Of a DNA stretch of 64,000 nucleotides, positions 59,313 through 63,897 are shown piece by piece. The DNA comes from an uncultured Gammaproteobacteria bacterium (lineage in GTDB: Bacteria > Pseudomonadota > Gammaproteobacteria > UBA9214). The DNA lies in the NCBI GenBank assembly GCA_963748215.1, contig CAVVHS010000003.1, positions 157,884 through 221,883 of the forward strand, read 5' to 3'. Within the stretch, counting starts at the first letter, position 1, and each line of letters starts with the position of its first letter. The notes beneath the pieces were generated by a model. The model was not told the origin of the DNA. It searched no databases and worked only from the letters and a program-made list of their open reading frames with translations. A program made the translations under genes and the position numbers.

Positions 59313-59741
59313 ATGAACACATTTACTGCAAAACCGAACGAAGTGAACCGGGACTGGTATGTTATTGATGCGAAGGGAAAAACCCTGGGTCGCCTGGCAA
59401 GTGAAGTGGCGCGCCGCCTGCGTGGCAAGCACAAGCCCATCTATACCCCTCACGTCGACACCGGTGACTATATTATTGTCGTGAATGCTGACAAGGTGCA
59501 TGTCACCGGTCGCAAGTTCACCGACAAGATGTATCACCACCATACCGGCTATATCGGCAACCTGAAGTCGGCCAGTTTTGCCAAGATGCAGGAACGGGCG
59601 CCTGGACGGGTCATTGAAATCGCCGTCAAGGGCATGCTGCCGAAAAACCCGTTGGGTCGTGCCATGTACCGCAAGCTGAAAGTGTACAGCGGCCCGGAAC
59701 ACATGCATGCCGCGCAGCAGCCCAAGCCTCTCGACTTCTAA
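59313..59741 (+). CDS. rplM: 50S ribosomal protein L13
   Basis: [27 protein letters not shown]. Confidence 0.99.
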
Positions 59742-59784: not shown

Positions 59785-60174
59785 ATGAGCGATACCTATT
59801 ACAGTACCGGACGACGCAAGACCTCCACCGCGCGCGTATTCCTGCGCAAGGGCAGTGGCGGCATTACGGTGAACAACCGTCCCCTGGACCAGTATTTCGG
59901 TCGTGAAACCGCGCGCATGATCGTGCGTCAGCCACTGGAAACGACCAACATGTCCGACAGCTTCGATATCATGGTCACCGTCAAGGGTGGCGGCATGAGT
60001 GGCCAGGCCGGCGCTATTCGTCATGGCATCACCCGTGCCCTGATGGAATACGACGGCCAGTTGCGGCCGACGCTGCGTCGTGCCGGTTTCGTAACCCGCG
60101 ATGCGCGCCAGGTCGAGCGCAAGAAGGTCGGCCTGCACAAGGCACGCCGCGCACCGCAGTACTCCAAGCGCTAA
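59785..60174 (+). CDS. rpsI: 30S ribosomal protein S9
   Basis: [28 protein letters not shown]. Confidence 0.99.
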
Positions 60175-60189
60175 CGCGTTACCGCTTGT

Positions 60190-60263
60190 TGGCGGATCGT
60201 CTAACGGCAGGACAGAGGACTCTGACTCCTCTAATCTAGGTTCGAATCCTAGTCCGCCAGCCA
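60190..60263 (+). tRNA. tRNA-Gln(CTG)
   Basis: TGGCGGA/TCCGCCA acceptor stem, anticodon arm GAGGA-CTCTGAC-TCCTC, GGTTCGAATCC, encoded CCA. Confidence 0.95.
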
Positions 60264-61240
60264 TACAGCAAAAGGGCCCATCAGGGCCCTTTTGCTGTAT
60301 TGAATGGTGCGGACTGGGATGAGAACCTCAGGTTCGACAACCGAGCGAAGCGAGGTTGAACGTCGCCGCGTGCGGCGGCGGCCCGCAGGGCGAGGGGCGC
60401 TTCGCCCCGAGTAATCCTAGTCCACCAGCCAACAAATAACCCCGCCCTTGTGGCGGGGTTATTTGTTGGCTGGTGGTCGATGGGTGAGGAGCTAGTCAGG
60501 TTCGACAAAATCGCCGGGAGGCCGCTCTCGCACATCCCTGTGTTTCGCGGCACTCGTTCATCCTGAACATCGCGGTTTGAACAGTGTCGCAACGCGACGC
60601 TGGCCCGAAGAGGTGCGCGGGGCGTAATGCCCCGCGTAGATAAACTCCCGGAGTAATCCTGGTCCGCCATGCCAAATCATGCAGCGAGTCCGGGAGGACT
60701 CGGCTGTATGGTTTTAAAAATAGTGGCCCATCAGGGCCCTTTTGCTGTATTGAATGGTGCGGACTGGGATGAGAACCTCAGGTTCGACAACCGAGCGAAG
60801 CGAGGTTGAACGTCGCCGCGTGCGGCGGCGGCCCGCAGAGGTGCGCGGGGCGTAATGCCCCGCGTAGATAGCGCCCCGAGTAATCCTGGTCCGCCATGCC
60901 AAATCCTGCAGCGAGTCCGGGAGGACTCGGCTGTATGGTTTTAAGAATGGTGGTCCGTGCGGACGTGGCTGTTGGTCGATGGGTGAGTAGCTAGGCAGCG
61001 GTTGCCGATGCAGGAGTCGTAGGGTGCGTTTTACGCACCGTTACTGGTGCACGGAGTGCACACTGCAGCATGCAATGATATCTCTGTGTTCTTCCGTGGC
61101 CAGTATCCTTTACGCAATGAGTAGGGATAAGGTGAAACCGCGTAGCGGTCGAGATACTGGCCTGAGTCATGCCCGGAGCCATCCTGGTCCGCCACGCCAA
61201 ACCATGCAGCGAGACCGTGAGGACCCGGGTGTATGGTCTA
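60264..61240 (+). repeat. Array of tRNA-3'-end-linked structured repeats (three complete units + one degenerate)
   Basis: GGTTCGACAA at 60331, 60499, 60781; GAGyhATCCTrGTCCrCCA..CCA at 60409, 60651, 60878, 61176; 60275-60388 identical to 60725-60838. Confidence 0.9.
61019..61066. repeat. GTAG-type REP doublet (same family as 15722-15894)
   Basis: GTAGGGTGCGTTTTACGCACC + GGTGCACGGAGTGCACACTGC. Confidence 0.8.
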
Positions 61241-61365
61241 ATGAATGCTAAACCCACCCTTGTGGTGGATTTGGATCGAGTGACGGGCTGGTCGGATGCA
61301 GCAAGCGTGAGATCGTTTATGCAGGCTCTGCGTGAGCGCAGATCCGGACAACCGGTGTTTCGAGG

Positions 61366-63897
61366 TCAGTCAGTGGTATAGCCAAATTGCTCGATCGTGG
61401 GTCCGAGTATGGGAATGATGCGCTGCACGGCTTCGTGATAGTTGCGGTAACGATAGAGTGAGGACGTATAGATCTTCTGCGTGACCTGCTCGTAACTGGC
61501 CGTTTTAACCACGCGTACACTCTTGTGATGTTGCAGGCAGGCATCACTCCAGGGTGCGCCGATGTAGTCCAGAACCCGGCGTGTCACCGCTTCCTGCTCC
61601 GCGACCAGGTCTTCGTAGTGTATTTCCAGGAACTCGATGCCGATGCTGCGGTAATGTAGCAGCATGTCCATCACCTGCTTGTAATGCAACGCGGTACTTT
61701 CGAAACTCGAAGTGTAGCGGTGTGCCGGTTTGAAGTTGGAGAAAAAGGCAGACAGGCAGGAATTGAATGGATGCCGGGATATGTGAATGACCGCTGACTG
61801 TGGAAACAGCAGCTTGATCAGGCCGGCATGTACTGCATTGTGCGGCATCTTGTCGGTCACCCAGCGGGTGTTGCTGTCGACCACGCCCAGTGTCTTGATG
61901 CCGGACAGGTAATAATCACGCATTTCCAGCAGGTGTTGCTGTGTCAAAGGTGCCTCCCTGTCCAGCAGGAAGGCAGGGTAGGCCAGCTTGCTGCCCGTGA
62001 TTTCATGCCCCTTATCCCCGGACAGGTCATTGATAAACTCGAGCTCGCCGGCCGGTGCGATCTGCGGATGCGAGCCGAGGATCTGTTCCAGCAGGCTGGT
62101 GCCTGAGCGCGGGAAGCCGACAATGAACACCGGCTGCAGGCTGTTTTCATCTGCCGGGACCATCAGGCTGCTCAGCCGCTGCCAGTTTTCCGCACTGAAT
62201 GTTGCTTTCCAGCGGGTAAACTTCTGCTCGTCCTTCTTCGGGTCATAGACCCTTCCGGCATAGCTGTTCTTCGCCTGGTTGGCTTCTTCAAAGGCAGTAA
62301 ATGCCTCCGGGTACTGGCCCAACTTGTCCAGCACAATGCCGCGTTCGAACAGATAGCTGGCCTTGATATGTTTGTTGTCGATAGCTGCGCTGTCGGTCTG
62401 GTTAAGAATGTCCAGGGCGGCTGTATGATCCTTGCGCCGTCTTGCCAGCATGGACTGGAGAATGGCGAGCCCCGAATAGCTTGCATCGAATTCGGCGGCC
62501 TTTTTTGCAAGCCGTTCGGCTTCATCGAGGTTGTGCACGTGTTCTTCCATCTGGCTCCATGCCTGGTAAAGACGCAGGCCGGCCGCATCATGTAACTCTG
62601 CCAGATGGAACTGGGCTCGTGCCGCGTCGTACTGCCCGAGATCTGAATAGTGTTTTCCAAGGCCTATATAACCATCGGGCATGCCGGGCTGGTGTTCGAT
62701 CACATAGCGCCATTCGGCGGCGGAAGCACCCCTGTCGCGCTGACTGGCGAGCAGGTGCGCTCTCGCGATATGCGCATGTATATCCCAGGGGGCAAGCACC
62801 AGGGCTTTCCCGATATACTCTGCGGCCTGCTCGACCTTGTCCTCGCTCAGCATGGCCTTGCCCAGGCCCGCGAGGCCCTTTGCCGAGTTCGGATTGCTTT
62901 TCAGGGCGCGTATGAAGTGCTCGACAGCCTCGTTCTGGTCGCCGAGCTCGTGCAGCCGGTAAGCCATGTTGCAGTGAACGGTCGAATTTTCCGGGTCCAG
63001 CAGGAGCGCCTTTTCGTAGTACTTGCGGGTATTGTCCGAATCATTCAGCCGGTCATACAGGTTGCCAAGACTGACGTAGGCGCCGGCATAGTCAGGGTCG
63101 AGCTTGATGGCACTTTCGAGGTATTTGCGTGCCATGTCGGCATCGCCGTGGTCGATCATCAATGAACCGAGGTTGGTAAGAAATTCCGGGTTGTCCGGCT
63201 GCAGTTTTGTTGCGGTCCGGAATTCGGCTTCTGCCTCGCCGTAGCGTTCCTGTTGTTGCATCGCCGCACCCAGGTTGTTATGCGCGAACGCAAACGTCGG
63301 GCTGATCTTCAGTGCATCGCGGTAGCGTTGTTCCGCGGTGTCAAGGTCGCCCAGCAGCTGGCTGACCGTGCCTGCATTGACGTGCAGCTCGGGATCGGAG
63401 CTGTCGAGCTGGAGTGCCTTTTCATAGTGTTCGAGTGCACCCAGCAGGTGATTGCCGGATTTATAGATATTGCCCAGGTTGTTCCAGGCGTCGGCGAGTT
63501 GCGGATCCAGTTTAATGGCTCGCTGGCCGCTGAGGTAAGCTTCTTCATCCCTGCCGAGACTGTGCAGTGCCATGCACAGGTTGCTGTGTGCCAGGGCGTT
63601 ATCCGGCTGCAGCGCGATTTGCTGTTCGAATCGCTCGATGGCAAGTTCCGGCCTGCCGGTCTGCAGGGCAATGACGGCGCTGATCTCGGCAAGGCTTGCA
63701 TCGCCGGGGTTGCTGCGCAACAGCTGCTCGGCCAGTTGCCCGGCGGCTTGCAGGTTGCCCTGCTGGTAATGCCGGATGACCTGGTTCAGCTGGTCGGGCG
63801 CTGCGGTGTACCCTGCGCTGTCGGAGCCGCAACAGCGCTTGAATTTCTTGCCGCTGCCGCAGGGGCAGGGGGCGTTCCTCGACTGGGCGGTATGCAT
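61366..63897 (-). CDS. SEC-C + TPR + sulfotransferase protein
   Basis: CPCGSGKKFKRCC, many TPRs, FIVGFPRSGTSLLEQIL, DKMP, YEDLV, TASYEQV. Confidence 0.93.
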   Translation of the reverse strand: MHTAQSRNAPCPCGSGKKFKRCCGSDSAGYTAAPDQLNQVIRHYQQGNLQAAGQLAEQLLRSNPGDASLAEISAVIALQTGRPELAIERFEQQIALQPDNALAHSNLCMALHSLGRDEEAYLSGQRAIKLDPQLADAWNNLGNIYKSGNHLLGALEHYEKALQLDSSDPELHVNAGTVSQLLGDLDTAEQRYRDALKISPTFAFAHNNLGAAMQQQERYGEAEAEFRTATKLQPDNPEFLTNLGSLMIDHGDADMARKYLESAIKLDPDYAGAYVSLGNLYDRLNDSDNTRKYYEKALLLDPENSTVHCNMAYRLHELGDQNEAVEHFIRALKSNPNSAKGLAGLGKAMLSEDKVEQAAEYIGKALVLAPWDIHAHIARAHLLASQRDRGASAAEWRYVIEHQPGMPDGYIGLGKHYSDLGQYDAARAQFHLAELHDAAGLRLYQAWSQMEEHVHNLDEAERLAKKAAEFDASYSGLAILQSMLARRRKDHTAALDILNQTDSAAIDNKHIKASYLFERGIVLDKLGQYPEAFTAFEEANQAKNSYAGRVYDPKKDEQKFTRWKATFSAENWQRLSSLMVPADENSLQPVFIVGFPRSGTSLLEQILGSHPQIAPAGELEFINDLSGDKGHEITGSKLAYPAFLLDREAPLTQQHLLEMRDYYLSGIKTLGVVDSNTRWVTDKMPHNAVHAGLIKLLFPQSAVIHISRHPFNSCLSAFFSNFKPAHRYTSSFESTALHYKQVMDMLLHYRSIGIEFLEIHYEDLVAEQEAVTRRVLDYIGAPWSDACLQHHKSVRVVKTASYEQVTQKIYTSSLYRYRNYHEAVQRIIPILGPTIEQFGYTTD

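Follow-up and report, generated by a model that had tools for sequence, protein, structure and literature searches.

Elements of the RtT/TLR (tRNA-linked repeat) kind have been known since 1978, the archetype being the 178-bp repeats of the E. coli tyrT-tyrV locus (rttR). In the sections of PMC8144298 that treat them, 22 TLRs are counted in E. coli K-12 at ten loci; they lie in tRNA or rRNA operons, and their 3' 18-19 bp are identical to the 3' end of the stable RNA (tRNA or rRNA) upstream. The same account places three of them, the rrn TLRs, behind 5S rRNA between two terminators and has them produced by read-through (PMC8144298). RtT RNAs are reported to be released in tRNA processing, and RNAs of the family to adjoin Asn and Lys tRNA genes in Actinobacillus (PMC4986893). 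Here we describe a four-unit array of such elements in a window of 64,000 nucleotides (the whole stretch of DNA that was analysed) of contig CAVVHS010000003.1, called C3 below, from an uncultured gammaproteobacterium (assembly GCA_963748215.1). An initial annotation of the window had drawn attention to a segment that lies directly behind the gene for tRNA-Gln(CUG) and is antisense to the 3' half of that tRNA. This segment is the predicted 5' strand of the closing helix of an RtT/TLR unit, a known element, and the array is a further example of a known family and no new class of element. We think it rather likely that the segment acts as the 5' arm of the first of the four units and that this unit works as an RNA, closed by a helix that we call P1 and processed from a read-through transcript. 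The features of the array are as follows:

60190-60263, + strand: tRNA-Gln (anticodon CUG) with encoded CCA (ARAGORN; Rfam RF00005, 59.4 bits)
60263-60300, + strand: hairpin T1, perfect 17-bp stem with a 4-nt loop (inverted-repeat search)
60298-60431, + strand: unit 1, a complete RtT/TLR unit (RF00391, 59.4 bits, E 4.7e-09, model positions 1-130)
60309-60327, + strand: antisense segment GCGGACTGGGATGAGAACC, the 5' arm of unit 1 (match to the reverse complement of 60239-60257)
60413-60431, + strand: 3' arm of unit 1, AATCCTAGTCCACCAGCCA (18/19, or 95%, copy of tRNA-Gln 60245-60263)
60422-60476, + strand: hairpin T2, perfect 25-bp stem with a 5-nt loop (inverted-repeat search)
60467-60673, + strand: unit 2, diverged (5' arm TGGCTGGTGGTCGATGGGTGAG, motif AGGTTCGACAA, 3' arm 60655-60673)
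60725-60900, + strand: unit 3, mosaic (direct repeats; RF00391, 29.2 bits at 60752-60870)
60966-61198, + strand: unit 4, decayed (unit-2-like 5' arm; 3' arm 61180-61198)

Unit 1 starts 35 nt past tRNA-Gln on the same strand. It passes the RF00391 gathering score of 45 bits over the full model and has the closing helix of the family; since the Rfam consensus structure pairs the arm with the 3' end, the flagged segment corresponds to the 5' strand of that helix, with 60311-60320 and 60414-60423 as the predicted 5' and 3' strands of P1. The locus also has the properties of a TLR: it stands right behind a stable RNA gene, its first unit shares 18 of 19 nt at the 3' end with that gene, and its four units fall within the range of one to five per TLR locus. 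The plan of a unit begins with an antisense arm, directed against T-stem and acceptor 3' strand of the tRNA, followed by GAUGAGAACC and then GGUUCGAC; a core of three hairpins (~80 nt) leads to GAGUAAUCC and finally to a sense copy of the T-stem 3' strand, the acceptor strand and NCCA. In unit 1 this sense copy comprises the T-loop end, the T-stem 3' strand, the acceptor 3' strand and GCCA. ARAGORN called tRNA-Gln alone over the window and recognised none of the RtT units as tRNA or tmRNA.

The sequence matches on which the initial annotation was built all hold. The 5' arm agrees with the reverse complement of tRNA-Gln 60239-60257 at 16 of 19 positions (three mismatches), and a search of the 64-kb window with this 19-mer, allowing up to three mismatches, returned three matches, namely the tRNA itself, 60309-60327 and 60759-60777, compared with none in 100 dinucleotide-preserving shuffles. 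The inverted-repeat search recovered the perfect 17-bp hairpin at 60263-60300, as well as the palindrome proposed for the next unit, a perfect 25-nt inverted repeat with arms at 60422-60446 and 60452-60476. In the left arm of this hairpin, T2, lie unit 1's acceptor strand and CCA, both of which the hairpin would sequester; its right arm (..TGGCTGGTGG) is the start of unit 2. In direct orientation, the 19-mer of the tRNA 3' end has four further copies, at 60413, 60655, 60882 and 61180 (74-95% identity).

The array thus holds one complete, one mosaic and two decayed units, the 3' arms of units 2-4 being 74-79% identical to the tRNA end. In unit 2 the 5' arm is an exact antisense match to CCACCAGCCA in unit 1, and the unit is broken at ~60520-60575 by a REP-like repeat. 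The first 114 nt of unit 3 (60725-60838) are 100% identical to 60275-60388 and include the second copy of the antisense arm (60759-60777), while its 3' part resembles unit 2; its RF00391 score lies below the cut-off. Unit 4 carries a REP-like insert at ~61018-61067. The REP-like repeats of units 2 and 4 are short palindromes that are present at many other sites of the genome. That of unit 4 (GGTGCGTTTTACGCACC...GGTGCACGGAGTGCAC) has dozens of genome copies, some of them locally clustered on contigs C8 and C9, and reaches a very high summed contig depth in one metagenome DNA run.

Does the 5' arm follow the host tRNA? The initial annotation had proposed to look for co-variation at other tRNA loci, and there the arm is not constant and varies with the host tRNA. 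In the same genome, RF00391 gave 25 matches at E<=1, seven of them above the cut-off. RtT matches lie directly behind 8 of the 43 tRNA genes, those for Glu(UUC), Gln(CUG), Gln(UUG), Ser(UGA, GCU, GGA and CGA) and Arg(CCG), and additional copies have Lys- and Arg(ACG)-type ends; every unit ends as the 3' end of its tRNA does and begins with a distinct, matching arm. A scan of public genomes with a core motif matched at least 120 stretches, 80 of which were fetched and underlie all counts given here. These 80 loci, from Enterobacterales, Marinobacter, Rheinheimera, Rhodanobacteraceae, Ectothiorhodospiraceae and others, hold 97 units, 62 with a tRNA called upstream. The 3' arm is identical to the upstream tRNA end at 17 or more of 19 positions in 48 of the 62, and at all 19 positions in 35 of these. 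At least 15 anticodon classes are covered (Arg, Tyr, Gln, Lys, Ser, Pro, Glu and Asn).

The fit of the two arms to each other was assessed by duplex energies for 44 of 55 units, those dropped having non-tRNA-like ends, being duplicates, or having tRNA body as their 5' region. In 35 of the 44, binding of the 5' region to its own 3' arm is stronger than to non-cognate arms on average, and in 13 it is stronger than to any of them. Judging from these comparisons, both arms track the host tRNA. The other 35 of the 97 units have no tRNA in the fetched stretch, and some of them have ends unlike tRNA. Five loci of this sort (L038, L074, L105, L106 and L107, from Rhodanobacteraceae and others) show the core CCCGNAGGG..GAGTAATCC followed by AATCCATTTT, which is not a tRNA-like end, and no tRNA lies in the fetched stretch; they may represent a tRNA-independent relative of the core, or chance matches.

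The helix formed by the two arms was analysed in an alignment of 42 out of 50 distinct units, obtained by a scan anchored on the GATGAGAA motif, which limits the set to that subfamily. Eight units stayed outside the alignment: one truncated, one mosaic, two longer variants and four near-duplicates. RNAalifold recovers P1 unprompted, with 88.6% of P1 paired and two-sided changes in five of its nine pairs. Over the whole structure 92.0% of cells are paired, compared with 79.2% in shuffles, none of 500 shuffles reaching the former value. Covariation scores 0.425, compared with 0.194 for shuffles and no more than 0.164 when the partners are slid. None of the core motifs varies across the 42 units, and the inner hairpins differ in sequence between orthologous units with pairing kept by compensation. 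The T-stem 3' strand pairs with the 5' arm at a mean of 4.2 of 5 positions, against 3.6 of 5 with the bases just before GGUUCGA. A true T-arm inside the unit, made of GGUUCGA and a local T-stem, was considered as well; with only 3.6 of 5 pairs, mostly two G-C pairs, it was rejected as the main helix of the subfamily.

The paired columns also tell the strands apart. They contain 66 G.U cells and 11 A.C cells, and within P1 the numbers are 32 and 7. As a protein site in duplex DNA would show no such bias, the excess of G.U over A.C points to a fold of the tRNA-sense strand, and the fold most likely belongs to the sense strand as RNA. Unit 1 folded alone conforms to this architecture: 60311-60320 is predicted to form a 10-bp P1 with 60414-60423, GAACC (60323-60327) to pair locally with GGUUC (60331-60335), and three hairpins to form inside (-67.9 kcal/mol, z -4.33; none of 200 shuffles folds as well).

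A mechanism can be proposed on this basis. A transcript would read through T1 and the unit would fold into a multi-helix RNA, which P1, made of the arm and its own 3' copy, would close so that a short 3' tail ending in CCA remains. P1 might thereby imitate the stacked acceptor/T-stem helix of the host tRNA, with the consequence that tRNA-processing nucleases would excise and trim the unit. Before processing, the arm might alternatively pair with the 3' half of the tRNA itself. Read-through transcription, processing and any role of the released RNA are the parts that we infer.

Several points weigh against this reading. The strong hairpin T1 separates the tRNA from the unit, and a promoter-like site was looked for on the + strand of the array and none was found. 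P1 is weak in many units, 9 of the 44 showing no preference for their own 3' arm over the average non-cognate one, and the aligned and counted units are mutually related, so that the statistics overstate the support; the pattern as such is evident in the alignment. In Tyr units of the E. coli type P1 leaves ~10 nt unpaired, so the likeness to the tRNA acceptor/T-stem helix is not general. Extension of P1 through the whole acceptor strand to the CCA, another arrangement that was tried, gives a mean of only 3.7 of 7 pairs and was rejected as not general. Of 20 sequencing runs found, five were recorded as RNA; three RNA runs and one DNA run, all as contigs, were compared with the locus: RNA contigs span rpsI and the tRNA, end near 60260 and barely touch the units, although as contigs only they weigh neither way; one RNA contig of 94 nt lies, with differences, on 60311-60361. 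A claim of 1991 that tied rtT to the stringent response was later retracted, and the tRNA-operon TLRs are without known function in the account of PMC8144298. Finally, in the minimum free energy structure of the precursor 60190-60480 (-180.7 kcal/mol, z -13.57), the segment 60309-60320 is paired to the 3' half of the tRNA, that is to the T-arm and acceptor strand, in a helix stacked on T1. Here hairpin T2, with its 25 bp, occupies the unit's own 3' arm, which leaves the tRNA as the partner of the 5' arm. Where the two candidate partners can be told apart, in the 8 of 41 units with an upstream end whose own and upstream 3' ends differ in the relevant 12 nt, six fit the upstream end slightly better, two are ties and none favours the own end; the margins are one base or one G.U versus a Watson-Crick pair, and a single locus in a single genus supplies most of these units. 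Since either 3' end is a copy of the other, sequence hardly separates the two partners.

These last results bear on the claim of the initial annotation that read-through RNA folds back on the T-arm and acceptor strand of the tRNA. The fold-back itself is predicted for the precursor, while the segment is not free-standing and pairs with its own 3' copy when the unit is folded alone. A folding switch could be built on the two pairings: in the read-through transcript the arm would pair with the tRNA T-arm and acceptor strand and lengthen the T1 helix, so that maturation of tRNA-Gln would be blocked or delayed or precursors would be marked for decay, and the own 3' copy would provide the alternative state. 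The stacked helix of the precursor fold and the six of eight informative units that lean to the upstream end fit such a switch, as do the arms of relatives, which begin right after T1 so that the helices would stack, and the 5' arm of unit 2 with its perfect complementarity to CCACCAGCCA of the preceding unit. Yet the tRNA is transcribed and folded first, and energy models are poor on tRNA tertiary structure; the part of the arm facing the T-loop has AUGAGAA as its conserved sequence, where the true antisense would read AUUCGAA; dispersed units on contig C9 (see below) keep the design with no tRNA end just upstream; and the differences among informative units are tiny, come mostly from one locus and would equally follow from decay of the own 3' copy. 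Nothing that we found shows a switch, which the initial annotation had listed among its options, and we regard it as unlikely.

We are equally doubtful that the array is a neutral by-product, in which decaying duplications of the tRNA 3' end and terminator region persist without function and the complementarity of the arms stems from an old inverted duplication. Decay is indeed visible, units 2-4 being decayed, mosaic or interrupted by REP-like repeats and several relatives retaining only truncated remnants, and such an origin would suit the tRNA-operon TLRs without known function mentioned above (PMC8144298). Against this, pairing in P1 and the inner hairpins has been maintained through compensatory and G.U changes over the long distance from Enterobacterales to the genus studied here, and the core motifs show no variation in the 42 units. 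Most of the genus, moreover, retains the first unit at the orthologous site. rpsI, tRNA-Gln, hairpin and unit follow one another in an arrangement that is orthologous across the genus: the flank is present in 30 of 37 genus genomes, tRNA-Gln was found in 25 of these 30 loci, and the arm motif follows within 110 nt in 20 of the 25, with a variant arm in two more and several loci ending at contig ends. Relatives have a hairpin of different sequence at the position of T1. RtT matches occurred in 21 of 24 sampled genus genomes, in only 2 of 16 other families of the class and in 1 of 14 controls (E. coli only).

Quite improbable, in our estimate, is a DNA-level element, a mobile or recombination cassette resembling an att or attC site, whose arms would present the tRNA 3' end and direct insertion or recombination there, and in which recombination between the repeated 3' ends would lengthen and reorder the arrays. 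Tandem repetition of units between 19-nt tRNA ends, and one core standing behind at least 15 kinds of tRNA with its arms re-fitted, are what such an element would produce. Unit order also changes: in the closest relative (L164, genome and contig G045:C76), 99% identical in the rpsI-tRNA part, the same unit types as in 60264-61400 follow in another order, namely tRNA, T2-type hairpin, intact type-2 unit, T1 hairpin and type-1 unit, the type-2 unit there having no REP-like insert. One DNA contig joins 60274 to 60725. The changes of order are explicable by unequal homologous recombination, and the contig joint may have arisen when the assembly collapsed the perfect 114-nt repeat. At the locus itself, none of the five PF00589 (integrase) matches of the genome lies on C3, and the same holds for the 16 genome sites of the arm-type motif (GYGGGR..TTTKGCGGG). 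No cargo was found between the tRNA-end repeats, the segments being 168-298 bp long with a single tested open reading frame without family match. The array in the window is no integration scar or att site of a tRNA-targeting island. Its orthology across the genus and the G.U excess of 66 to 11, unlike a double-stranded protein site, likewise speak against a DNA-level element.

Arm-type motif or integrase features do occur elsewhere in the genome, at tRNA-Lys, tRNA-Arg and tRNA-Pro, and there the motif is a marker of true integration sites. On contig C9 (C9:310571-408779) eight modules of ~470 nt follow tRNA-Lys(UUU) in the same orientation over 98 kb, each containing the tRNA-Lys 3' half from the anticodon stem with an RtT-like core inside the T-loop. 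Over 120-220 nt, six of the eight modules have a right flank that shares 70-95% identity with that of tRNA-Lys; the modules share a left flank that is absent at tRNA-Lys, and the last module has no right flank. As judged from these flanks, the modules show the attL / P-O-P' / attR arrangement of islands in tandem, and this counts in favour of the DNA-level element. Genes for Wadjet, AbiE (AbiEii), PIN and ParE lie between the modules among housekeeping-like ones, and no tyrosine integrase was found between them. A different picture emerges at tRNA-Arg(ACG). At C6:883950-884700 (- strand) an attR-like arrangement comprises an arm with GCGGGACTTTTGCGGG, the tRNA-Arg(ACG) 3' half from the anticodon loop, a hairpin and two RtT units, the displaced 3' half having no core; the start of contig C5 (C5:2378-2742) holds an intact tRNA-Arg(ACG), the same arm motif and an integrase fragment. 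The C6 array was apparently displaced by an island or rearrangement and lies in the displaced chromosomal flank, so it is resident and not island-borne. This points to RtT arrays as resident trailers that are sometimes displaced or captured by islands.

Two further observations were made in this survey. At C8:225177-225310 (- strand) a tRNA-Gln(UUG) 5' body is joined at the T-loop (GCAGGTTCGA) directly to an RtT core, the acceptor strand being gone from the 3' end; this fusion lies just upstream of an intact tRNA-Gln(UUG) with a normal unit behind it. The genome also has six PF01797 (Y1_Tnp) matches, for example C9:316317-316643 and C9:333650-333976; they are IS200-like tyrosine transposase genes that are possibly REP-associated, and two identical copies lie ~1 kb upstream of Lys-type modules. 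A link between these transposases and RtT was rejected, as only these two of the six lie ~1 kb from Lys-type C9 units and there is no general association.

It is very improbable that the unit is a self-targeting cassette whose antisense arm, as RNA or folded single-stranded DNA, pairs with a tRNA gene or transcript at its 3' end and so chooses the site for a new unit, the sense copy being the duplicated target. If true, this would explain how a single core came to follow at least 15 kinds of tRNA, each time with both arms adapted, as well as the different unit order of 99%-identical relatives and the capture of the core by island att sites behind tRNA-Lys. Neither the target-specifying guide nor the footprint of fold-back copying during insertion, both suggested in the initial annotation, gains support at a locus with no integrase, no arm-type motif sites on its contig and an arrangement that is orthologous across the genus.

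The surroundings of the array include the following genes:

59313-59741, + strand: rplM (Pfam Ribosomal_L13, 6.1e-48)
59785-60174, + strand: rpsI (Pfam Ribosomal_S9, 2.4e-51)
61366-63897, - strand: TPR/sulfotransferase gene, convergent, bounding the array (family matches)

rplM and rpsI form an operon directly ahead of tRNA-Gln(CUG), and the four-unit array makes up the 1.1-kb spacer between the tRNA and the convergent TPR/sulfotransferase gene. T1, with arms at 60263-60279 and 60284-60300, is the spacer between the tRNA CCA and unit 1, and its design of A-tract, GC core and T-tract is terminator-like. A terminator consensus scan found seven terminator-like sites, compared with a mean of 2.5 in shuffles; it listed a core identical to that of T1 at 60725-60738 and the T2 core at 60444-60459, and 60263-60300 itself was not listed.

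Together, these results make the locus a clean, genus-wide conserved example of an RtT/TLR array behind tRNA-Gln, beside 24 further matches in its own genome and 80 loci elsewhere. They also answer the question of how the arm relates to the host tRNA: as far as can be read from the aligned sequences, both arms track the tRNA, compensatory and G.U changes preserve the helix, and it is the sense strand that folds.

The unit can be compared with several described systems. Integron attC and CTX-phage attP are folded single-strand attachment sites, in which imperfectly complementary arms fold to a duplex that a recombinase can read. The units in the window share with them the two imperfectly complementary arms, and such sites also bound cassette arrays; the window units differ in having no linked recombinase, and their G.U-rich pairing and genus-wide orthology fit RNA better. 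3'ETS-leuZ, from a tRNA 3' external transcribed spacer, resembles the RNA proposed here as a functional RNA from the trailer of a tRNA operon; compared by description only, it differs in being a small-RNA sponge, described in PMC8144298 without a tRNA-end copy or antisense arm. A further comparison is with rrA, rrB and rrF, the E. coli TLR small RNAs; like them, unit 1 lies between two hairpins, terminators in their case and terminator-like here, and finishes with a repeat of the 3' end of the stable RNA upstream (PMC8144298). These three follow 5S rRNA and bind Hfq and CsrA; the 19 tRNA-operon TLRs are given scores <0.01 for CsrA binding in the same source (PMC8144298). The closest counterparts remain the RtT/TLR units of E. 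coli, which likewise follow a tRNA gene immediately, on its strand and in tandem array, and whose 3' end copies the last 18-19 nt of the tRNA including the CCA (PMC8144298). Common to both are the core motifs GAUGAGAACC, GGUUCGA, CCCGNAGGG and GAGUAAUCC and a closing helix made of the 5' arm and the 3' copy. In contrast to the archetype, the host here is not tRNA-Tyr but tRNA-Gln(CUG) behind rplM-rpsI in an uncultured genus; P1 is longer than in the Tyr consensus, with 10-14 bp and ~GCCA left free; and strong terminator-like hairpins flank the unit, with later units carrying REP-like inserts.

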